NCBI GenBank assembly: GCA_036930585.1
Contig: GCA_036930585.1_3066.1
From: a phage
Reading direction: 5' to 3' (one strand)
Length of the DNA: 64,000 bases
The notes beneath the pieces were generated by a model. That model ran no database searches, had not been told where the DNA came from, and saw only the letters and a program-made list of their open reading frames with translations. A program made the translations under genes and the position numbers. Numbering within the stretch: position 1 is the first letter of the stretch; every line of letters starts with the position of its first letter. This document shows, piece after piece, positions 3,671 to 14,702 of the stretch.

Positions 3671-4871
3671 ATTTTGTAATAATGTCAAACTGTTCTTTAA
3701 AGCAGAAGCTTGAATCTTGATGCTGATACAAAAATTCATATGCTTTTTCTCGCTCACGGTCATAAAGAGCTCGGTCAGATGACAGTTCTTTAATACGCTC
3801 GAATGTTGATTCCATGTCATTTTCATCAAACCAAATGATACCGCTATCATGCGAGGTCAAAGGAGTATTATCAACACGGAATTTTAAATTTTCGCCAGTA
3901 GATTTCCAAAATACCGGAATTGTTCCACATGCACCAAGCTCGAGATGAGTATATTCTAAAGAGCGCTGTAGATATTTTTTATCCAACTTACTCAACTGAT
4001 AACCAAAACCGGATTTACTCATACGTTCAAGCATTTCGCTATTTACATAACGGTCAAGAATTTGCGTTGGCAAATTAGGAGCAATTTTAATTTGGTCTAC
4101 TTGATGAAGACGATAATACTCGTATGGAATTCCTTTTTCTTTAATAGGAATGAACGCTGGAGAACGTTCCAGACCTTCCATAATAGTACTTAGTCCTGCA
4201 GGTTTAAGATGTTTTTCGTGAAAATCAAACATCTGATAAAAACCTTTCCATGTAGTCGTACGACCAATCCAACGGTTGATATTCATATTAATTTCAGAAA
4301 CATCTTTCCAGTAGGTTGACCGAACCTTCGCAATATCCATAGGAGGCTGAAAGTTATATACGGTCGGTGCTTCTTCAATATCATCAAACAGAGAAACAGT
4401 TTCTGGATACCATTCTTTCATCAGAACTTTATTAAAATCACCATTATCAGAATGACTAAAAATAACATCAGCTCGACGAACAGTTTCTTCTAATCCCAAA
4501 TTTCGACGCAAAGAAAGAGAAGAATGGTCATGTTGATAAACTACAACACGAACAGAAGGTTTAATGTTATCAATAATTTTTTTATAGTTATTAATAGTGT
4601 CTTCTTCAACCGAAGTAGCAGGAACTGAATTGATAATTAGAATATCACAATCATTTACCAGCTTAAGTGTTTTATCGTATTCTTTTGCCAATAAAACCGG
4701 AATTGAAAATGATTTATAATCATGCGCGCAATTACGAGTAAATGATTTATCTTTAGCATAAACCAAAGTCACTTCATGACCATTTTTAATAAACCAATCA
4801 CGTTGCTCGAGTGAGAATTTTGTTACACCACAACCTTCAAGACCTCGAGCCATAAAAATACATGCTTTCAT
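3669..4871 (-). CDS. a-gt: DNA alpha-glucosyltransferase
   Basis: 400 aa; near-identical to T4 a-gt by recall. Confidence 0.95.
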   Translation of the reverse strand: MKACIFMARGLEGCGVTKFSLEQRDWFIKNGHEVTLVYAKDKSFTRNCAHDYKSFSIPVLLAKEYDKTLKLVNDCDILIINSVPATSVEEDTINNYKKIIDNIKPSVRVVVYQHDHSSLSLRRNLGLEETVRRADVIFSHSDNGDFNKVLMKEWYPETVSLFDDIEEAPTVYNFQPPMDIAKVRSTYWKDVSEINMNINRWIGRTTTWKGFYQMFDFHEKHLKPAGLSTIMEGLERSPAFIPIKEKGIPYEYYRLHQVDQIKIAPNLPTQILDRYVNSEMLERMSKSGFGYQLSKLDKKYLQRSLEYTHLELGACGTIPVFWKSTGENLKFRVDNTPLTSHDSGIIWFDENDMESTFERIKELSSDRALYDREREKAYEFLYQHQDSSFCFKEQFDIITK

Positions 4872-5115: not shown

Positions 5116-5322
5116 TCATAGTTGCCACCATTTTTTGACTTGATAGGAATCAACCCACACTTTCATATTAGGGTCTGCTCTTACAATAGGAGGATTAACT
5201 TCTTTAATTGAACTATCGTGGTATTCTTTTTCAGAAATTTTCACACAAAGATGACCATTCAAAGATTCAGTAAATCCTGCATTAATTTTAAGACGCTTGA
5301 ATTTTACGCGTGTAAGCATCAA
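5116..5322 (-). CDS. hypothetical protein
   Basis: 68-aa ORF. Confidence 0.4.
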   Translation of the reverse strand: MMLTRVKFKRLKINAGFTESLNGHLCVKISEKEYHDSSIKEVNPPIVRADPNMKVWVDSYQVKKWWQL

Positions 5323-5605
5323 TCATATCCTCAATCTGCGATCTAGTAGTCTTCCAAAGAATACTAATGAGTTCATCGTTATATGGCTGTTTTAGAATAT
5401 CCCGACTTTTCTTGATAGCATATTCGTATTGAGCAAAATTATTATTTTCAGCTGCGATCTGAGCATGCTTATAAAGACGATTCAGTTCGCGTTTGTTTTT
5501 AGACAATAACTTATTTGCTTTTCTTTCTGCTTCAAGACGGTTCTTTTCTTCAATAGAAGAAATAAGCTTTTCCACTTCATCATTAATTTCGGGTTTATCA
5601 GTCAT
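5288..5605 (-). CDS. hypothetical protein
   Basis: 105-aa ORF, charged/helical. Confidence 0.5.
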   Translation of the reverse strand: MTDKPEINDEVEKLISSIEEKNRLEAERKANKLLSKNKRELNRLYKHAQIAAENNNFAQYEYAIKKSRDILKQPYNDELISILWKTTRSQIEDMIDAYTRKIQAS

Positions 5606-5606
5606 A

Positions 5607-5825
5607 TTATTTCTCTAATATAAAATAAAAATCATCATCTGTTAAATGATATCTGTAATTTAATTCTACACCATTAGATTTAAAAGCGGTATCATACGGA
5701 TTTTCTGGATCAATATCAATGTCAAGAGCTAAAACTTCCCTGAGATACATTTTAAGTAAATAGGGAATAGCTTCAACTTCAGGTATTTCTTCCAAGAATC
5801 CGGAGAGGTTAATCGTTAGCCTCAT
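5607..5825 (-). CDS. hypothetical protein
   Basis: 72-aa ORF immediately downstream of gene 55. Confidence 0.5.
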
Positions 5826-6366
5826 ATAAAAAATCCAAACTAGGAGAATCGTCTACAACACTTTTCTTTTCAGCCCCCGGTGTTCTATAGGTTGATTCTT
5901 CGTAATGCGTCATTTTATCGTAGATGTCTTGAATAAAAGTTTCATCTACTAACGCAACCATATCGTCGTCACGACTGTCATAGACATTGTGAACGAAGTA
6001 ACTATATTTCTTTGCAACTTCCTTACGTTCTTTTTTAATACGTTGGACGAATGCATTAAAACAAGCTTGAGTTATATATGCATGTGGGTTTTTATATTTC
6101 GTTTCATCAAAATTATGAAGCCCCTTAATAGAAGCTTCTATACCATCTGCAATCATTTCTTGTTTCCAAGACTGGGTGTATCCTGAAAAGTTGAAACGTT
6201 TAGATAAGCCTTCTGCAATAAGCATAATGGCTAATCCGATAGTATCATTCTGACGAACTACTTTATTTGGGTCTTTATTATTTGCTAATTCTGTTTTCCA
6301 ATCAATAATAGCTTGTAAAAGCTCTTTATTGTTTACGTAATTATATTTAGGCTTAGTTTCTGACAT
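5809..6366 (-). CDS. 55: late-transcription sigma factor gp55
   Basis: matches T4 gp55 by recall; start placed at [10 protein letters not shown]. Confidence 0.95.
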
Positions 6367-6444
6367 TTTCACCTCTTAGCTCAATTCATAGATCTATTAT
6401 ATCATAATATTTGAAGATCTATCTTAAAGCATAGAGGATATCAG

Positions 6445-6714
6445 TTATCTAAGTAAACAGTATGCTTGGAATACTTTCTCCATCATCTTTTTAAATTCAT
6501 GAATATCTATATAATGACTAGTTAGATCAGCATGATATAAAAAGTCTAAAAACTTTTCATGTGTACTAACATATTCACTTTCATTTAATTCAGAAACATG
6601 GCTTTCCCAATATCCAACACCAGTCTTATTTGGGAAAAATGAAATTTTCATGTATTTGTCAACATAGAAAATGCCATAATTTTCAATAGTAATAGAAATA
6701 TTAATAAATTTCAT
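6445..6714 (-). CDS. hypothetical protein
   Basis: 89-aa ORF. Confidence 0.5.
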   Translation of the reverse strand: MKFINISITIENYGIFYVDKYMKISFFPNKTGVGYWESHVSELNESEYVSTHEKFLDFLYHADLTSHYIDIHEFKKMMEKVFQAYCLLR

Positions 6715-6926
6715 ACATTCATCAACTTAGCCGCTTCAAGAGCTGCATCTAGTGAATCAAATTGATCAACATATTCAATCAATTCGCCGTAATTAGCATA
6801 TAACCACCATTGGCTAAATTCATACTCAAGGATGAATCCGTTTCCTTCAATTTGAGTTAAACCAATGCCATTTGTATTTACTTCATACCAAGCAAGACGT
6901 AAATCGTTAATAAGAGCTTCGTTCAT
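6711..6926 (-). CDS. hypothetical protein
   Basis: 71-aa ORF. Confidence 0.5.
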   Translation of the reverse strand: MNEALINDLRLAWYEVNTNGIGLTQIEGNGFILEYEFSQWWLYANYGELIEYVDQFDSLDAALEAAKLMNV

Positions 6927-6928
6927 AA

Positions 6929-7255
6929 TTATACCTTAGTAATTTTCAGGTCTGCAAATTTTTTCTTGCGTTGATTTTTCATGCGACGAATAGTTTTATC
7001 GGAAATTTCATGCTTTTGATAAGCTTTAGATTCTACACCAAAAGCTTTAACATCAAATTCTGACAAGATATATTGAACCAACAATTCACGGACAGTATTG
7101 CGTCCAATCTTCTGATCATTCTGTTTCATCGTCTGATGAAGCTCTTTTTCCCATTTATCCAAAATTTGAGGAGTTACAATATCGCCTTTTTCTAGCAAAG
7201 AAACTACTTTATCATATGCGTAAGAATTAATGACGTTTTTAATTTGAATAGTCAT
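6929..7255 (-). CDS. hypothetical protein
   Basis: 108-aa ORF. Confidence 0.5.
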   Translation of the reverse strand: MTIQIKNVINSYAYDKVVSLLEKGDIVTPQILDKWEKELHQTMKQNDQKIGRNTVRELLVQYILSEFDVKAFGVESKAYQKHEISDKTIRRMKNQRKKKFADLKITKV

Positions 7256-7280
7256 ACATTATCCTCAATTACGTTAAAAT

Positions 7281-7309
7281 TTTATTATCCAAAAAGGGCC
7301 GAAGCCCTT
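7281..7309 (-). terminator. intrinsic terminator (aagggc-cgaa-gccctt followed by T-run on minus strand)
   Basis: hairpin plus TTTTT directly after stop of ORF 7308..7508. Confidence 0.65.
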
Positions 7310-7508
7310 AGCTAAACTTTTTGGCACCCTTCCAGCCTTCGTACATCATTGCGACTGACAATGACAAAGCTCCTTCACATGCTGCATACTTATTATTCCA
7401 GAACCAATTTAGAAAAACTTCATCCTCAATACCATTGTGTTTCATGTTCTGGAAAAATTTGGCGCGTTCTTCAGCAATTCGCTGCGATAATTTAGATTCA
7501 GGATTCAT
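7308..7508 (-). CDS. hypothetical protein
   Basis: 66-aa ORF. Confidence 0.5.
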   Translation of the reverse strand: MNPESKLSQRIAEERAKFFQNMKHNGIEDEVFLNWFWNNKYAACEGALSLSVAMMYEGWKGAKKFS

Positions 7509-7724
7509 TTAAATTTCCCAATTGCCATTTTCATCAATAAATTTAATCCAGTCATTTACTGACCACTTAGTTGTATCGCCTTTTGGAGTAACATTTAAAG
7601 TATATAACCCCTGCTTAAAAAGCATTCGTTTGATATTCATATTTTCCTCAGCTATAACGATAACACTCGTTTGATTTACGTTTAGCAACTCGTTGAGAAG
7701 TATTATAATCAAAATCATCGTCAA
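7509..7724 (-). CDS. hypothetical protein
   Basis: 71-aa ORF. Confidence 0.4.
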   Translation of the reverse strand: MTMILIIILLNELLNVNQTSVIVIAEENMNIKRMLFKQGLYTLNVTPKGDTTKWSVNDWIKFIDENGNWEI

Positions 7725-7941
7725 TGTAAACTGATTTTTTCAACTTTCTTACTTCACCGCGTAATTGACGATTTAACTCATCTTTAACTTCTGAATCAAT
7801 ACCTTTCATTCTACGCCATTTATCTGAGCGAAAAATGTTTTCAACCATATCTTTATGACTTACAGCATCAGGAGCTTTACGCTTTCCGAAATAGTCATAA
7901 TCACGAACTTTCAAGTCTTTACGACGATACGTTTTACCCAT
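7648..7941 (-). CDS. hypothetical basic protein; start uncertain
   Basis: ORF 7648..7980, internal Met chosen to avoid overlap. Confidence 0.35.
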   Translation of the reverse strand: MGKTYRRKDLKVRDYDYFGKRKAPDAVSHKDMVENIFRSDKWRRMKGIDSEVKDELNRQLRGEVRKLKKSVYIDDDFDYNTSQRVAKRKSNECYRYS

Positions 7942-8116
7942 GGAGTTTAATTTCCTTAGCAACTGAACTAAATGCAGCACGATCGCAAATCATGTGTTTA
8001 TGTAACTTAAGTATAAGATAATAAACATCATAACCATTTACGTAAGTAACACGAACAGCATTACCATTAATGAGATAATACTGCCCCTTTTTAATTTCTT
8101 TATCAACCATAACCAT
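7934..8116 (-). CDS. hypothetical protein
   Basis: 60-aa ORF just downstream of promoter at 8147-8176. Confidence 0.45.
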   Translation of the reverse strand: MVMVDKEIKKGQYYLINGNAVRVTYVNGYDVYYLILKLHKHMICDRAAFSSVAKEIKLHG

Positions 8117-8146
8117 ATCAATTCCTCAAAGGCAATTCATATGTTA

Positions 8147-8176
8147 ATAATACCACAGTTTGAGCTCGTTGTAAAC
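8147..8176 (-). promoter_or_regulatory. early-type promoter: GTTTAC, 18 bp, TATTAT with TGg extension
   Basis: motif read on minus strand. Confidence 0.6.
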
Positions 8177-8274
8177 AACTTTGTGAAAATTATTTTAGGG
8201 AATGATAAGAAGGGAACGATAGCTTAGAATGGTAATATACAGAATGTGAGAAAGAAGGACCCAGAGGGCCCGTC

Positions 8275-8598
8275 TTAGTCTTCTATGATATCTCTATCAT
8301 ATCCAAGTGAAATGAGAGTTTCTTTGAAGTGTTTAATGTTCTTTTGTCTAGAATCATTAATGAAAATGACTGGATAACGAATGTTAAGAGATGTGAATCC
8401 AGCGCGTTTAGCAAGAGATACAATCAGCGGACGATCATACTCAATCTTACCGTTATTTGTAAGAACTTTATAGAAAGTAAAAGGAGCATTGAGCTCCTTT
8501 AGAAGTTTTGTAACTGATTGACATCCAGGACAACGACCTACTTCTTCGGGGATGCCATAGATTTCAATCTTATTCTTTAAGTTCGAGTTTTGTTCCAC
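8275..8598 (-). CDS. nrdH: glutaredoxin-like protein NrdH; start uncertain (GTG at 8598 proposed)
   Basis: CPGC redox motif in glutaredoxin-like context; N-terminal part of track ORF 8275..8727 looks non-coding. Confidence 0.7.
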   Translation of the reverse strand: MEQNSNLKNKIEIYGIPEEVGRCPGCQSVTKLLKELNAPFTFYKVLTNNGKIEYDRPLIVSLAKRAGFTSLNIRYPVIFINDSRQKNIKHFKETLISLGYDRDIIED

Positions 8599-8881
8599 GA
8601 GAAATAATTCCTTGATAAGCCCAGTATGGCGGGTTAACAGAATCCTCACCAGAGTTTTCTTCAGGAAAATAAACCTGGATAACAAATCCAGATGCATCAA
8701 AGGTAAAATAAACCGTAGGCAGTTCACCTAACAATTCGGCACGAGCATTAATTTCTTCGAGATCTCGTTCACGTCCAGCCCAAAAACTAGGATTTAGACT
8801 ACATTCGTAAAAATAATAGTCATTACCGAACATATCAAAACCCTTCCAACTCTCTACTACATACCGCTCAAAACTAATCAT
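8570..8881 (-). CDS. hypothetical protein
   Basis: 103-aa ORF. Confidence 0.5.
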   Translation of the reverse strand: MISFERYVVESWKGFDMFGNDYYFYECSLNPSFWAGRERDLEEINARAELLGELPTVYFTFDASGFVIQVYFPEENSGEDSVNPPYWAYQGIISRGTKLELKE

Positions 8882-8883
8882 AA

Positions 8884-9099
8884 TTAAGCCTTTTTATCAA
8901 GAACAGAATTCAGCTTGTTAGTAATTTTATCCAGACGCTCATTGAACTCGCTAGAAGATAAACCCTTTTCTGGAGAAATCAAACTAATCACGAAAAATAT
9001 AGCAATAAAAGGAATAAGGAAAATAGCTCCAACTGCCATAAACAGAAAGAATGTTACAGTTGTAAGAAAATCAGCTAAACCTTTACGAAATTTATACAT
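8884..9099 (-). CDS. small membrane protein (1-2 TM)
   Basis: hydrophobic stretch FLTTVTFFLFMAVGAIFLIPFIAIFFVISLI. Confidence 0.5.
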   Translation of the reverse strand: MYKFRKGLADFLTTVTFFLFMAVGAIFLIPFIAIFFVISLISPEKGLSSSEFNERLDKITNKLNSVLDKKA

Positions 9100-9214
9100 A
9101 TTTTACCCTTAATCGATTAACCGAGCATTGATAAGTACTAAACTATACTGCGAATAAAATTCTGGACCAAAATGAAAAATCATATCATTTATAGTATCCA
9201 TAATGTAATTCAAT

Positions 9215-9652
9215 TTAATCATGTGTCCACACCCCATCGGTATTTGACCAAAGCCGCTGATTATCTGATCCTCGCCACAGCTTTTTGGTCGGAAGATTTT
9301 TCTCATACTTCCCATCAATAATAACATCAACATATTTAAGCATTTCTAGCTGTTTAATATCTTCAAACTTATATCCTGTCCACAACCAAATGTCTTTCTC
9401 AGGAAATCTTGCTTTAACCCAAGAAACTAAATTTGAAATCTCTTCTCGGTTCTGTGGATAAAGCGGGTCACCACCGGTTAAGGTAAGGCCTTGGATATAT
9501 GATTTGCTTAAATGGGACGCAAGTTCTTTAACGGTATTCATAGTGAATAACTGTCCGTTACGAGCATTCCAAGTACTACGATTATAACAACCTTCGCATT
9601 TATGCAAACAACCTGTAACGAAAAGAACGGTCCTGCATCCAGGGCCATTCAC
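9215..9652 (-). CDS. nrdG: anaerobic RNR activating enzyme NrdG (radical SAM), no ATG or SD, in-frame TAG just upstream
   Basis: VNGPGC...CLHKCEGCYN motif; track start is GTG at 9652. Confidence 0.75.
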   Translation of the reverse strand: MNGPGCRTVLFVTGCLHKCEGCYNRSTWNARNGQLFTMNTVKELASHLSKSYIQGLTLTGGDPLYPQNREEISNLVSWVKARFPEKDIWLWTGYKFEDIKQLEMLKYVDVIIDGKYEKNLPTKKLWRGSDNQRLWSNTDGVWTHD

Positions 9653-9716
9653 AAAGCAGCACGGGATTGTCTACTAGAGAGGTTCCCCGTTTAGACCGGT
9701 TTTACATGAGCCTGAA

Positions 9717-10263
9717 TTAAATTAACTCATACGCCTGGAATGCATCGTATACATCTTTTTCTGTTTTAGATTGGGCATAATTCAATGCATCAGCGATTTG
9801 CCATTTTTCTGCGTCCTCAATATGTTTTGCGTAGGTACGTTTAACATAAGGAGAAAGTACTTTATCTACATTCGCAAAAGTCGTTCCGCCGTATTGGTGA
9901 GAAGCAACCTGTGCAGTAATTTGTGCCATAATTGCAGTAGCAACACCGATTGATTTAGGAGTTTCAATCTGTGCATTACCAAGCTTAAATCCGTTTTCAA
10001 GCATTCCTTTTAAATCTACTAAACAACAATTAGTAAATGGCAATGATATACTGTAATCTAAATCATGGAAATGAATAATTCCGCTTTCATGCGCTTTCAT
10101 AATAAAAGACGGGACCATATTTTTGGCAATGTGTTTAGACACAATACCAGGCCATAAGGTCCCGTTGAGTTGGAAAAACACGAGAATCTTTATTAGCATT
10201 CTCGTTTAAAAGGTCTTTATTAGTTTTATGAATCAATCCTTCAATTTCTTTTTCAATTGTCAT
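9717..10263 (-). pseudogene. nrdD: nrdD remnant: N-terminal ~165 codons of class III RNR, with a frameshift near 10146-10153 and premature stop at 9717
   Basis: ATG at 10263 opens MTIEKEIEGLIHKTNKDLLNE...; NrdD-like sequence continues in another frame (GIVSKHIAKNMVPSFIMKAHESGIIHFHDLDY...). Confidence 0.75.
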
Positions 10264-10733
10264 TTTAAACTCTTTCTAAGCTGCTTCTTGAATGAAGCTA
10301 TTAATTGTGTTTTGGTGTCAGATTCATTATATTCAAATCCTCTTTGAAGCATCTCGGCCATCATTTCCTCTTTTCCGAAACGAGAAAATTCCTTTGATTT
10401 ATCTCCAACAAAGTTAGGGTGAATATTATTTTGGGTGTAATCGGATTTTAAATAAGTAAGTAAATTTTCTAACCATTCAAGATAATCAACACCTTGTCCC
10501 TTTAAGCCAGAACGATTAAATTTATGCTTCATTTGACCTTCTGCGGCATTGCATAGATTACAAAGCAATCCACGTACCTTTCCTGCTTTTGGTCCATTTA
10601 ATTCATGGTCATGATCAAGATGATTAGCTTGAACATCAGGATTTAGTTCTCGTTGGCAAATTAAGCATTTACCGTTTTGTGCATCATAAAATTTCTGTTT
10701 TTCTTCTTTATATAATTTGCCAGTCAATAACAT
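10260..10733 (-). CDS. 49: endonuclease VII (Holliday junction resolvase)
   Basis: 157 aa; matches T4 gp49 by recall, Cys-rich zinc site. Confidence 0.95.
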   Translation of the reverse strand: MLLTGKLYKEEKQKFYDAQNGKCLICQRELNPDVQANHLDHDHELNGPKAGKVRGLLCNLCNAAEGQMKHKFNRSGLKGQGVDYLEWLENLLTYLKSDYTQNNIHPNFVGDKSKEFSRFGKEEMMAEMLQRGFEYNESDTKTQLIASFKKQLRKSLK

Positions 10734-10774
10734 AATAAACCCTTACCTTAAATAGATAAGGGTATTTATTATTT

Positions 10775-11278
10775 TCAAGTATTGTAAAACATTTGATTCA
10801 ATCGCTTATATTGCCGAATCTTTTGGTCAGAAAAAGAAATTTGGGTTTCAAGCCATTCAATGTACTCTGCGGCAGCTTGCATCAGGTTACCTTCATAGCC
10901 ATCGTTATTTTCTTGCGCAGCTAATTTAGCTAATGCGTATGAAATACGTTCACCTTGAAAAGCGGCTTTAGGCTTCTGAACATCTTGGCTAGTTCTCTCT
11001 ACAACTTCTTCAATTTCGCCATTTTCTACTGATTCAGTATTCCACAAACACCAGTATGTAATTGGCTTATCATAGATGTTAATAATCTTTCCGTCAGAAA
11101 GTTCAATTTCAATAATTCCAGTGTCAGGCTCTATATCATCTTCACATTCTTTTACAAGTTCACGAACTTTAAAGACAGTACCTGCACTAAGTTCCGGCCA
11201 GTAATTACACAGCCCTGTATCAGCACGATTAATTCTAAACCACTTATCTACTGTAATCATGTCCCATCTCCATATCAA
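10775..11278 (-). CDS. hypothetical protein (pin/49.1 region)
   Basis: 167-aa ORF preceded by promoter. Confidence 0.55.
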   Translation of the reverse strand: MIWRWDMITVDKWFRINRADTGLCNYWPELSAGTVFKVRELVKECEDDIEPDTGIIEIELSDGKIINIYDKPITYWCLWNTESVENGEIEEVVERTSQDVQKPKAAFQGERISYALAKLAAQENNDGYEGNLMQAAAEYIEWLETQISFSDQKIRQYKRLNQMFYNT

Positions 11279-11300
11279 TTAAGTCATTTATCGTTGGTTC

Positions 11301-11330
11301 ATTATATACTGTTTCTTCATCAGTGTAAAC
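11301..11330 (-). promoter_or_regulatory. early-type promoter: GTTTAC, ~17 bp, TATATAAT
   Basis: motif read on minus strand upstream of ORF 10775..11278. Confidence 0.55.
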
Positions 11331-11382
11331 CGGTTCTTCCGGCTCTGGCTCTACAGTTTCCCATCTAGCCGCCCACCAAGGT

Positions 11383-11553
11383 TTAACCCCGAAGCTTATT
11401 AAGTTCTTCATCATCAATCCAGGATTCTAGTCCTGATGGCAGGTCACATTCAATTTCCCAAAGAAGTTCTTCAATTTTTTGAAGACGATCTAGTTCTTCA
11501 GCAGGAATAGTAACCATTGACGGAGCTCTTGCTACATTAATATCGTAAATCAT
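11383..11553 (-). CDS. hypothetical protein; start uncertain
   Basis: ORF 11383..11592, internal Met chosen. Confidence 0.4.
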   Translation of the reverse strand: MIYDINVARAPSMVTIPAEELDRLQKIEELLWEIECDLPSGLESWIDDEELNKLRG

Positions 11554-11555
11554 AT

Positions 11556-11771
11556 TTACCCCAGTTTGACCATACAATCGCCGTATTTCCACTTAGAAAT
11601 AGACTTTTCACCATTAGAATAATAAACTTCAAGTTTAGCACGATTATTTTTAATTTGAATAACCTTTGCTGTCATCAAAGTTCCATACCCATAATAAACT
11701 GCAACTTCATCACCTACATATACCGCACTTCCGCGGTAATCGTGAATATAGTCAGTTCCTTCGAGCATCAT
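11556..11771 (-). CDS. hypothetical protein
   Basis: 71-aa ORF. Confidence 0.5.
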   Translation of the reverse strand: MMLEGTDYIHDYRGSAVYVGDEVAVYYGYGTLMTAKVIQIKNNRAKLEVYYSNGEKSISKWKYGDCMVKLG

Positions 11772-12031
11772 TTAAAGTATTCCCGCAATTGGTCAAATCC
11801 ACCAATATGACTTCCATCTGGAGCGAATACCTGCGGCATTGTCAATCCAATTTGAGTATCACGACCTAGTTTAGTCAGAAGCTCAGCGATTTTCTCATCA
11901 TCAAAAACACCTTTTTCCGGCATAATGTTGATAAATTCAAACGGCTGTTTCTTCACGGTCAAAAGACGTTTTGCATTATCGCAATACACACATTTATGGA
12001 TGTTGCTATCATAACCATATACTTTAAACAT
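11768..12031 (-). CDS. nrdC: phage thioredoxin/glutaredoxin NrdC
   Basis: 87 aa; CVYC active site; matches T4 NrdC by recall. Confidence 0.95.
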   Translation of the reverse strand: MFKVYGYDSNIHKCVYCDNAKRLLTVKKQPFEFINIMPEKGVFDDEKIAELLTKLGRDTQIGLTMPQVFAPDGSHIGGFDQLREYFK

Positions 12032-12032
12032 A

Positions 12033-12275
12033 TTATTCCTTAATTCCTAGTACTTGTTTAAAAGTCTCGTCGTAATCAAGACTTTGGCCCGTTTGTTCTT
12101 TATGTTTGTATATAATATCACTTACTTCTGATAGCATATTTTTATATGAACGAGTTAAAGCAGATTTAAGCACGCTGTATCTATCAGGAAATTTACCATG
12201 TTCATTATAATAAGCTATTGCTAATTCACGGACTGCCTTTTCAGCAGCCTCCATATATTCTTTACGCTTGGTCAT
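12033..12275 (-). CDS. hypothetical protein (nrdC.1 position)
   Basis: 80-aa ORF. Confidence 0.5.
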
Positions 12276-12277
12276 TT

Positions 12278-12667
12278 TTAATCCAAAATATTATTAGGCA
12301 TTGGTTGAACACTCACAAGTTCTTTAAAGAACTCAGTAGAGTCAGGCAATTTAACCATTTCCGGAGCATGCTTACTGAATTTATGTTTACATTGACGGCA
12401 TTTATATTCAAGCTCTGGTTTACGCCAGTTAATCAATTGAACTTGTTCAGTTCCACATTCAGGGCAATTAGGAACGTTTTTAGAAGCTCTTTCACGTCGT
12501 TCAACCATAGCCATAATAGCATCCCATGCTGGAGGTTTAAAATCTAAATCGTCGCAGCCGTGAATCTTTCCACGCATTTCCATATCATCTTCCTCACCAG
12601 CCATAATAATTTTAATTAAACTGGAATTACTTGAAGCTGCAATGTCTTCTAATAGACGCTTTTTCAT
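12278..12667 (-). CDS. zinc-ribbon protein
   Basis: CPECG...CRQCKHKF four-Cys motif. Confidence 0.55.
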
Positions 12668-13590
12668 TTCAATACCTCAATAGCATTACGTAAACCATTT
12701 GCTTTGGCGGTTAAAGCCTTAAGAACTTTAGTATGCTCTTCAATTTGTTTTTCAACTTCAGTCAAACGGACATTGAGATATTCACGTTCTTCTTTCATAG
12801 TATCATTTCCATGATTGGGTTTTGGTATAGGTTTAAATTCACTAGGGTCCTTTAATTTAATAACAAATTTAGTTTCAAACAGTGAAAGACCATAATTCGT
12901 ATTATCATCAAAGGATTTGACTACATCCATATCAGATAATAACACGCGCAAATTATAAGCCAAAGAACTAATAGTTTCATTGTGTTTATTAGCTTCGCGT
13001 GGTTTCATATACGGAAGATTTTTATATATCTCATGCGGAGCGCAAACGATAATTGACAATTCAAATTGTCCATTCTGGGACGATGGAATGAATTTAGCCG
13101 TAACCCAGTCTTTTACATTCACATTAATAGTACGGTTATCACCATGACAAAACAGTCTACGAGAATGCTTAAAAAGCATATTCACGTTATTATTGAATTC
13201 GTGTGAAAATTCACTAGCAAATTTTTCTTTACTATCTTTAGAAAACCATTCTTCTAAATAAGTTCTTTTCACGTCGTTAATAATATTAAATGTAACAACA
13301 CTAGCATTTGATACATTAGTCTTAATGTAGCTTGGATACATAAATTTTTTAACATTATTAACAGCTATCACAGAAGATAGTAATCGGGAACGTTTGAACC
13401 ACTCGAGCAAAGAACCAAGAGAATGTGAATACGCATTTTGTGTATCTTTACAAATATGGTTTTCCCATCCAATATAGTCTAAAAAATCACGAAGAATATT
13501 ATTGATTACTGCTCTGTGTCCGATCTGATAATTACGGTGTTTAGTAATAAGACTGTCAAAATAATCAATATAATGTTTACGAGTTTTCAT
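12664..13590 (-). CDS. hypothetical protein, C-terminal coiled coil (family member 1 of 4)
   Basis: 308 aa. Confidence 0.6.
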   Translation of the reverse strand: MKTRKHYIDYFDSLITKHRNYQIGHRAVINNILRDFLDYIGWENHICKDTQNAYSHSLGSLLEWFKRSRLLSSVIAVNNVKKFMYPSYIKTNVSNASVVTFNIINDVKRTYLEEWFSKDSKEKFASEFSHEFNNNVNMLFKHSRRLFCHGDNRTINVNVKDWVTAKFIPSSQNGQFELSIIVCAPHEIYKNLPYMKPREANKHNETISSLAYNLRVLLSDMDVVKSFDDNTNYGLSLFETKFVIKLKDPSEFKPIPKPNHGNDTMKEEREYLNVRLTEVEKQIEEHTKVLKALTAKANGLRNAIEVLK

Positions 13591-13642
13591 ATTCTTCTCA
13601 CTTGGTTAATGGTTTATACTCCGAGCCATCCTTGGCTTTAAA

Positions 13643-14674
13643 TTACTTAATTAACTGTAAAGCTTGTTCAAGACGATTAAGACGATTAACGGATTCTTCC
13701 CAAATCTTTTTAGCCTGCTCATATTCTTTCTGCGCTTTATTAGAAATTTCTAGAACTTCTTTATAAGCTTTTTCTAGTGCAATAACTTCTGGACGAATTT
13801 CTACTGGTTCAGGCGAATCGTCAAGACATTCCATTAGTTCCTCAAGGGTAGTTTCTTCTTTAGGAGTATTCACAATTTCATCACATTTTTGTTGGTAAAT
13901 TTCTTTATCAGTCGGTGAGTACGCACACTTTACTTCACGGAGACTAACTACAATTTTATATCCTTCCCAACCGCATATATTCTTAAAAGGATAAGTATGA
14001 ATATTTTCTACTGTTTCCATACAAAGTAATGCGGTCTCTAATTGACGAGTTATAGTGCTAGCAATTGAGAAAAATTTATTAATGTTCTTTTGATTAGCTT
14101 CTGGTGTAAAAAATCTGTAATTAATAAAAATAGCTACTTTGTTTTTATCAAGTTCATATTCTTCTGCTATAATCATATCATCAGCTAAGGGATGAATTTG
14201 ACGATAATCGCCATAACATAATTTAGAAGCTGATTTTAGAATTTGCTTCGTAAAACTCCTAAATTCACTAACCCAACGACGAGTAAAAATATTCTCAGGG
14301 TCTTCTTTAGTATTAAGATGATAAGTATTAACATCACCGAACCAATTATATCCTACTACATCTTTAGTTCGTTTAATTTCTTTCCCAAATTTACTAAGAA
14401 TATCTCTGTTGACTAAGTATGAAAGAAGACGAGACTCTTTAAAGGTTTTCTTGATAAGATCTTTATCTACACGACTAGAAATTTTACGAATTTCATGAAT
14501 AAATTTGCTGGAAGAAACAATACTTGCATCAGTATTGTTGAGCCACTGATTGATAATAGAAAGAACACTATTCTGACTAGACATAGGTTTAACTTTATCA
14601 TCAATAACGCTATTGAATGATTTGATATATTCGTTACGAGTCATATTAATCTCCTCAGTAGAAAGTAAGAACAT
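13643..14674 (-). CDS. hypothetical protein, C-terminal coiled coil (family member 2 of 4)
   Basis: 343 aa. Confidence 0.6.
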   Translation of the reverse strand: MFLLSTEEINMTRNEYIKSFNSVIDDKVKPMSSQNSVLSIINQWLNNTDASIVSSSKFIHEIRKISSRVDKDLIKKTFKESRLLSYLVNRDILSKFGKEIKRTKDVVGYNWFGDVNTYHLNTKEDPENIFTRRWVSEFRSFTKQILKSASKLCYGDYRQIHPLADDMIIAEEYELDKNKVAIFINYRFFTPEANQKNINKFFSIASTITRQLETALLCMETVENIHTYPFKNICGWEGYKIVVSLREVKCAYSPTDKEIYQQKCDEIVNTPKEETTLEELMECLDDSPEPVEIRPEVIALEKAYKEVLEISNKAQKEYEQAKKIWEESVNRLNRLEQALQLIK

Positions 14675-14702
14675 TATACCACATCCTTGTGGTAAAGTAA
14701 AC
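14673..14702 (-). promoter_or_regulatory. early-type promoter: GTTTAC, 18 bp, TATAAT
   Basis: motif upstream of ORF 13643..14674. Confidence 0.55.

Follow-up and report, generated by a model that had tools for sequence, protein, structure and literature searches.

The nrdD-nrdG locus in T4 and related phages

The closest described counterpart of the locus analysed here is the nrdD (sunY)/I-TevII/mobC/nrdG region of bacteriophage T4 (NC_000866, 42446-46385), where the intron of nrdD encodes I-TevII and mobC separates nrdD from nrdG (PMC2988022, Table 1). We examined the corresponding region of a T4-like phage (Tequatrovirus) in a 64-kb stretch of contig GCA_036930585.1_3066.1 (assembly GCA_036930585.1), hereafter the window, which represents 64 kb out of a genome of ~168 kb. 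The anaerobic, class III ribonucleotide reductase (RNR) module of this phage has very probably been inactivated by two lesions, namely a deletion between the copies of an 8-bp repeat and a one-base insertion.

The window shares with T4 the order 49, nrdD, nrdG, the ATGA overlap at the start of nrdD, and the site of the intron, which follows GAGT 538 nt into nrdD; exon 1 and nrdG have ~95% DNA identity to those of T4. It differs from T4 in that what remains of the intron is the SP1/HY03/ELT1 sequence variant and not the T4 variant, in the absence of exon 2, both endonuclease genes and the nrdG start, and in the frameshift within exon 1.

The best proxy for the ancestor of this locus is phage ELT1 (MZ892903.1), which has the same intron variant together with an nrdG 5' allele, MNYDRIYPCCFVNG, that contains the repeat CCCGTGCT, and which is ~96% identical to the window on both sides of the lesion. 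The ELT1 locus is intact, with an NrdD that measures 605 aa after splicing, an intron of 1,045 nt that carries a 256-aa endonuclease, a mobC-like gene and an NrdG of 156 aa, and it holds the 2,920 bp that are missing from the window.

Two further points of comparison come from deletions. The T4 clone T4_7t1 (OL964745.1) is a viable laboratory mutant with a 2,046-bp deletion that also loses exon 2, mobC and the 5' part of nrdG and also keeps exon 1. It differs from the window in that its deletion runs from the end of the I-TevII open reading frame (ORF) to about codon 39 of nrdG (locus ~3573) with 1-2 nt of microhomology, in that the intron core and I-TevII are kept, and in having no frameshift in exon 1. 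Spontaneous deletions between short direct repeats are familiar in non-essential regions of T4, for example in rII, and leave one copy of the repeat at the junction. In contrast to those classical cases, the left repeat here lies inside a self-splicing intron, and one event inactivates a ribozyme together with two mobile endonuclease genes and two metabolic genes.

The features of the locus on which the argument depends are as follows.

9725-10263, minus strand: nrdD exon 1, complete, 539 nt (native 538), encoding NrdD residues 1-179 and the first base of codon 180, with a +1 insertion inside; from the alignment of eight relatives, tblastn and Pfam NRDD.
10150-10151, minus strand: one-base insertion, CC against a single base in relatives; from the alignment of eight relatives, and present also in a Logan contig.
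9658-9724, minus strand: the opening 67 nt of a group I intron of the T4 nrdD type; identity to the intron 5' ends of 236Ecol005PP, HY03, SP1 and ELT1, 98.6-99.3%.
9671-9673, minus strand: in-frame TAG within the intron sequence, closing the nrdG frame upstream; from reading of the sequence.
9658-9665, minus strand: junction left by the deletion, with the 8-bp direct repeat CCCGTGCT present once; from the comparison with ELT1.
9215-9657, minus strand: nrdG remnant, from codon 10 (codon 8 if the repeat is counted) to the stop; from the ORF, TIGR02491, Fer4_12 and seven intact NrdG proteins.

A deletion junction on a single copy of an 8-bp repeat

Alignment of the locus with T4 and other T4-like genomes, a comparison that a previous sequence-only reading of this DNA had proposed, places both breakpoints on one copy of CCCGTGCT, at 9665-9658. 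The ELT1 locus has two copies of this 8-mer, one spanning nt 60-67 of the intron (1704-1711 of the reverse-complemented locus) and the other nt 21-28 of nrdG (4624-4631), with 2,920 bp from one to the other; the undeleted relative thus carries two copies and the junction one. The BLAST alignments from the two ELT1 sides overlap by exactly 8 nt, with no gap, filler or orphan bases, and the junction reads, in context, GACAATCCCGTGCTGCTTTGTGAATGG. The left repeat extends from the 3' strand of intron helix P4 into P6, and the right repeat corresponds to nrdG codons 7-10 (Y-P-C-C). The junction is the signature of a deletion between short direct repeats.

A different description of the junction, in which the microhomology was imperfect (CCNTGC) and left 2-3 orphan bases (GC), arose when it was read against T4, SP1, 236Ecol005PP and Pinarejo, and was dropped. 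ELT1 shows that TGCTGC is a native nrdG allele, so the repeat is a perfect 8-mer.

On the ELT1 scale the sequence removed comprises intron nt 68-1045, including the 256-aa GIY-YIG endonuclease gene; the 1,280 nt of nrdD exon 2, encoding residues 180-605 with the glycyl-radical domain and the C-terminal zinc site; a 633-nt mobC-like HNH endonuclease gene; and the nrdG ATG with the first 7-9 codons of that gene. The missing length depends on the reference, being ~2.3 kb against SP1, 2.9 kb against T4 and 3.1 kb against HY03; the interval between nrdD and nrdG holds mobC, segH or nothing in the relatives. The sequence-only reading had postulated that a deletion took the 3' two-thirds of nrdD, any intron and homing-endonuclease DNA, and the start of nrdG. 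The losses from nrdD, the endonuclease DNA and the nrdG start are borne out; the intron was truncated rather than removed, its first 67 nt surviving.

An exact search for the junction in IMG/VR gave 0 matches, and when 241 nt spanning it were used to query the phage collection, the match reached 80% coverage in no record. An undeleted version of the locus was encountered in L010, a 2,966-bp metagenome contig (ENA ERZ27280592 k141_136876) that encodes the same gene 49 protein as the window and keeps an intact exon 1, the intron and the 256-aa endonuclease, with 97.2% DNA identity to the window; it is an undeleted close relative from the wild.

The nearest relatives are not the same on the two sides of the junction. 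On the nrdG side (9000-9655) these are Pinarejo, Elenatom and HP3, at 98% identity; on the nrdD side (9658-10800) they are SP1 and BCH953P4, at 97%, and in their own nrdG region these two reach only ~86% identity to the window. This pattern points to a locus that was a recombinational mosaic already before the deletion.

nrdD is reduced to a frameshifted first exon

The nrdD ATG (10263-10261) overlaps the TGA of the endonuclease VII ORF (10260-10733, minus strand) as ATGA, just as the sequence-only reading had described. From this ATG the first frame runs as MTIEKEIEGLIHKTNKDLLNENANKDSRVFPTQRDLMA, continues with WYCV and then meets a stop (42-aa ORF, 10135-10263), and the NrdD sequence resumes in a second frame as GIVSKHIAKNMVPSF..., which stays open to 9717. 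The extra base that had been predicted around 10146-10153 proved to be an extra C at 10150/10151, within GGCCTGG (10153-10147; the CC is 10151/10150); all eight aligned relatives are one base shorter there, with GGCTGG or GGCCGG. The codons GCT GGT (GCC GGT in one relative) thereby become GCC TGG T, the frame shifts past codon 38, and translation would end after 42 codons at the stop at 10135-10137.

At this codon (window 10147-10153) the close relatives have GCT and the divergent contig L011 has GCC, and the window has GCCT, as though it had retained the third bases of both. This could be a coincidence, or it could be a trace of recombination or mismatch processing between GCT and GCC alleles.

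When an intact NrdD of 605 aa was used as the tblastn query, residues 1-38 matched one frame and residues 30-179 the other, at 93-100% identity, and residues past 179 had no match in any part of the 64 kb. Once the extra C is taken out, just 3-5 codons differ in amino acid from each of the eight relatives, and descent from the NrdD family is clear. What remains falls well short of a full-length protein: Pfam NRDD (PF13597) is matched (E=3e-35) over profile positions 18-141 of 562 only, and TIGR02487 scores 129 bits against a cut-off of 326, compared with 566 bits for an intact relative. The glycyl-radical domain (PF01228, Gly_radical), at residues 481-586 in an intact relative, is absent from the window, as is the C-terminal zinc site. 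Programmed frameshifting or read-through at the extra C was also considered and ruled out, there being no exon 2 to rescue.

The sequence-only reading took 9717 as the point at which nrdD had been truncated, and this interpretation does not survive the alignment. Exon 1 is complete to 9725 (…GCGTATGAGT), ending after GAGT 538 native nt into the gene, and T4, SP1, HY03, 236Ecol005PP and ELT1 use the same 5' splice site; the TAA that closes the exon 1 frame, at 9719-9717, falls within the intron remnant, as it does in intact relatives. Indeed, this same 181-aa ORF is annotated as 'exon 1' in many intact genomes; it continues past the splice site for a few codons, up to the same TAA. While the second frame was rightly said to end at 9717, its length had been put at ~165 codons; the NrdD-homologous part is ~141 codons (residues 39-179) followed by two intron-encoded codons, and ~165 is nearer to the 160-aa ORF that includes upstream out-of-frame codons. 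It had also been allowed that T4-like NrdD proteins might naturally end near this point with a separate ORF downstream, in which case the reading would be refuted. The first half of this is true of the exon 1 ORF, but the downstream exon 2 ORF is absent from the window, and the finding stands.

Exon 1 also contains a short mosaic patch outside the lesion, of ~21 nt at 10041-10061 (minus strand), in which DLDYSISLP replaces DIDYSPALP. Among ~700 T4-like records matching the region, none exceeds 85.7% identity over the full 91 nt that hold the patch, and an exact search for it in IMG/VR gave 0 matches. An exact 23-nt match, the one match in the metagenome collection, lies in contig OCHD01000040.1, from a divergent T4-like phage that is 82-87% identical outside the patch and has an intact, intronless nrdD. 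Because the patch is an exact copy of a divergent allele, and because it holds multi-base synonymous codon swaps (TCC to AGT, CTT to TTG), we read it as a short gene-conversion or mosaic tract and not as decay.

The remnant of the group I intron

The ~65 bp that the sequence-only reading had treated as a spacer between the stop at 9717 and nrdG are in fact the first 67 nt of a group I intron. The insertion site is the one used in T4 nrdD, and site and 5' homology together place the remnant in group I. The intact SP1 intron matches RF00028 at 70.6 bits, and its alignment was used to assign the helices. By this assignment the remnant holds P1 to P5, with the 3' strand of P4 and 2 nt of P6, and lacks the rest of P6, the 3' strand of P3, P7 (the guanosine-binding site), P8, P9 and the endonuclease ORF. 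Neither the complete catalytic core (P3-P9) of RF00028 nor the 3' splice site is there, and an Rfam search of 8500-11000 (E<=1) returned no match, as would be expected for a quarter of a core. Because the ribozyme core has been removed, the fragment cannot fold into a ribozyme, and splicing is impossible. Nothing similar to the I-TevII-like GIY-YIG intron endonuclease, a 256-aa ORF in relatives, was found in the window.

The nrdG remnant lacks a start

The nrdG frame runs from 9652 to 9215 as a 145-aa ORF whose first possible start is a GTG at 9652, corresponding to the native Val12. As the sequence-only reading had noted, an in-frame TAG (9673-9671) lies seven codons upstream of this GTG, the frame has no ATG, and the 25 nt upstream (CTAGTAGACAATCCCGTGCTGCTTT) contain no purine-rich Shine-Dalgarno sequence. 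The nrdG ATG of the relatives lies across the 3' end of either nrdD or mobC.

Downstream of the junction the protein is well preserved, its iron-sulfur/SAM domain being complete. The match to TIGR02491 (NrdG) has E=8e-60 and a score of 201 bits, where the cut-off is 126, and extends over positions 11-153 of 154; Fer4_12 is matched over positions 1-136 of its 137, and the radical-SAM cluster motif CLHKCEGC is kept at 9610-9587. Family membership is therefore secure by motif and score, but positions 1-10 of the profile are missing along with the gene's own start. The remnant has neither an ATG nor a ribosome-binding site, no upstream ORF for translational coupling, and no substrate protein on which to act.

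A proposed history of the locus

Comparison with the relatives suggests an ancestor with the order gene 49, nrdD exon 1, a ~1,045-nt group I intron with an I-TevII-like GIY-YIG gene inside it, exon 2, a mobC-like HNH gene and nrdG, and exactly this order is seen in ELT1. One lesion is shown by the junction itself: recombination or replication slippage between the two CCCGTGCT copies deleted the interval that separated them, 2,920 bp on the ELT1 scale, and left one copy. This single event cost the phage the ribozyme core, the intron endonuclease gene, exon 2, the mobC-like gene and the nrdG start. In the other, the extra C in exon 1 shifts the frame past codon 38. The consequence would be that no NrdD is made, and the phage presumably draws its DNA precursors from its aerobic reductase, the NrdDG of the host and the nucleotides released when host DNA is degraded, as established T4 biology would lead one to expect.

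The coding sequence that is left shows no decay, and both lesions would therefore be recent. With the extra C removed and the patch set aside, exon 1 has 0-2 nonsynonymous against 12-33 synonymous differences from each of the eight relatives, the number of nonsynonymous differences from L003, L006, L008 and L010 being 0. The nrdG remnant differs from Pinarejo at 12 synonymous codons and 1 nonsynonymous codon, and the variant residue at the latter is found also in HY03. A recent date would be compatible both with a natural origin and with aerobic propagation in the laboratory.

Several points weigh against this history. ELT1 is only ~96% identical to the window, and the flanks are of different type, with SP1 the nearest on the nrdD side and Pinarejo/HP3 on the nrdG side; the size of 2,920 bp and the mobC-like gene are thus attributed to the true ancestor by extrapolation. 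A copy of exon 2 may formally exist beyond the 64 kb seen of the ~168 kb. Slippage, recombination between the repeats and repair of an endonuclease break may each account for the sequence. The deletion and the extra C are, moreover, seen at the level of assemblies, and the second assembly that contains them, a Logan contig, is probably a separate assembly of the same read set and not a separate sample.

Alternative explanations

One alternative accepts the deletion as real and changes only its trigger: a break made by a homing endonuclease (I-TevII-, MobC- or SegH-like, for example during mixed infection) would have been resected and annealed at the 8-bp microhomology, with no replication slippage involved. 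The deleted interval holds up to two endonuclease genes in relatives, the locus is a known hot spot for endonucleases in T4 (PMC2988022, Table 1), and the different closest relatives of the two flanks suggest past recombination. Neither breakpoint, however, coincides with a known cleavage site (the mobC target is listed as unknown in PMC2988022), alleles that bear the intron are immune to their own endonuclease, and T4 usually mends such breaks by homologous recombination. We consider an endonuclease trigger unlikely.

The stock or sample may have contained the deletion mutant beside a phage with an intact module, the consensus then following whichever genotype was in the majority or was easier to assemble, a situation compatible with the loss as described above. 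Deletions at this locus arise readily in propagated T4, as OL964745 illustrates, and the Logan assembly is fragmented (its contig is 20.8 kb), as happens when variants coexist. Both assemblies nevertheless cross the junction unbroken, and look-ups with exact proteins turned up no contig with a matching intact allele, although this last is weak evidence. A mixed population seems to us rather improbable.

It could also be argued that only the deletion is real and that a sequencing or consensus error produced the extra C at 10150/10151, given that the indel involves one base and falls in a codon that varies among relatives (GCT against GCC), where a mixed template might mislead the caller. Against this, the extra C is in both assemblies and makes a run of no more than two C, which is no long homopolymer, and once the deletion had occurred there would have been no selection on the nrdD frame. 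There is little to recommend an error at this position, and we give it a low probability.

The sequence-only reading itself put forward an assembly collapse as the alternative to a deletion; in this case the locus would have been collapsed or mis-joined, and the real genome would have a full-length nrdD-nrdG. The exact stub proteins were found in only one other place in public collections, the Logan assembly of SRR28171614, and their restriction to just one sample would suit an artefact. On the other hand, assemblies collapse at repeats that equal or exceed the k-mer or read overlap in length, and here 8 bp is all that the two ends have in common; the flanking 25 kb are collinear with relatives; and a perfect 8-bp direct repeat marks the exact position of the junction, as is classically seen in deletions of biological origin. 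Over window 5215-14702 (~9.5 kb), with both the junction and the extra C, Logan contig SRR28171614_192 (20.8 kb) agrees with the window at every base (100% identity), and for this reason an assembly collapse is very unlikely.

Lastly, the notion that nrdD is a split gene whose exon 2 and intron 3' half lie at another genomic position, the two halves of the gene being joined by trans-splicing, can be dismissed as having next to no chance of being right: group I introns can be made to trans-splice in vitro and only 64 kb of the genome are in view, but the break lies inside the core (after the 3' strand of P4, 2 nt into P6) and not in a peripheral loop, the remnant runs straight into nrdG by way of a repeat that is part of nrdG, exon 1 carries a frameshift, and the window has no trace of exon 2 or of the intron's 3' half.

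Genomic setting

The locus lies in the T4 gene block pin, 49, nrdD, nrdG, 55.8, nrdH, which is on the minus strand throughout, and its synteny agrees with that of T4, SP1, HY03, Pinarejo, ELT1 and WilhelmHis. Window 1-25000 is ~97% identical to the nearest phage-collection records, none of which is identical to it. Compared with WilhelmHis, window 1-25200 is collinear except at the nrdD/nrdG site and at one small ORF of 177 bp. The gene immediately upstream of nrdD is intact.

10260-10733, minus strand: gene 49 (endonuclease VII), intact, 157 aa; from the ORF, alignment with T4 gene 49, and Pfam Endonuclease_7 and Endonuc-dimeris on the identical Logan gene.

The 177-bp ORF (DUF7279) is found between pin and gene 49 in WilhelmHis, SP1, Pinarejo and ESh30 and is missing from T4 and from the window, where pin and gene 49 are separated by 41 nt only (10734-10774), with a terminator-like hairpin. 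This hairpin is the sole plausible terminator in 9000-11000; promoter-like sites in the same interval are at chance level (7 found against 7.5 expected).

Other losses of the module and significance

Exon 2 is present in 502 Escherichia-phage records, compared with 506 that have the exon 1 region, so that a loss of this kind is uncommon; the module is dispensable, as the independent deletion in OL964745 illustrates, but usually kept. A further case may be provided by a Logan protein of 160 aa, P0029 (5 contigs, the longest 9,243 bp), an NrdD fragment whose tail, YGKIRLAMKFLMDVIISVL, corresponds to the middle of exon 2 read out of frame. From this protein sequence one would deduce a third deletion in nrdD, independent of the other two, with GCGTATG repeats at its two ends, one where exon 1 ends and one at about codon 295. 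In the literature we found no paper that mentions OL964745/T4_7t1 or SRR28171614, and a search on nrdD/nrdG deletions in T4-like phages yielded nothing specific.

The loss described here is a new instance of a well-known kind of event, the ordinary loss of a dispensable module, and it raises no new mechanistic question. It is nonetheless a clean example, in which one 8-bp repeat removes an intron, two mobile endonuclease genes and a two-gene pathway together. For annotation it means that the ORFs of 42 aa, 133-160 aa and 145 aa are remnants of nrdD exon 1 and nrdG, and that the 67 nt between them are a dead intron fragment; what is left at the locus amounts to recent pseudogenes. A phage without its own anaerobic RNR may give a reduced yield in oxygen-free settings such as the gut, which would matter were it considered for therapy.

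It is possible, and we put it forward only tentatively, that the deletion is a natural genotype, that is, that a wild T4-like lineage shed its reductase, its intron and two homing-endonuclease genes in one repeat-mediated event. If that were so, the 67-nt remnant would be a rare datable 'fossil' of the loss of a group I intron by imprecise deletion, and the phage, taken together with OL964745 and P0029, would indicate that the anaerobic reductase module of the T4-like phages is under only conditional selection and is recurrently lost.

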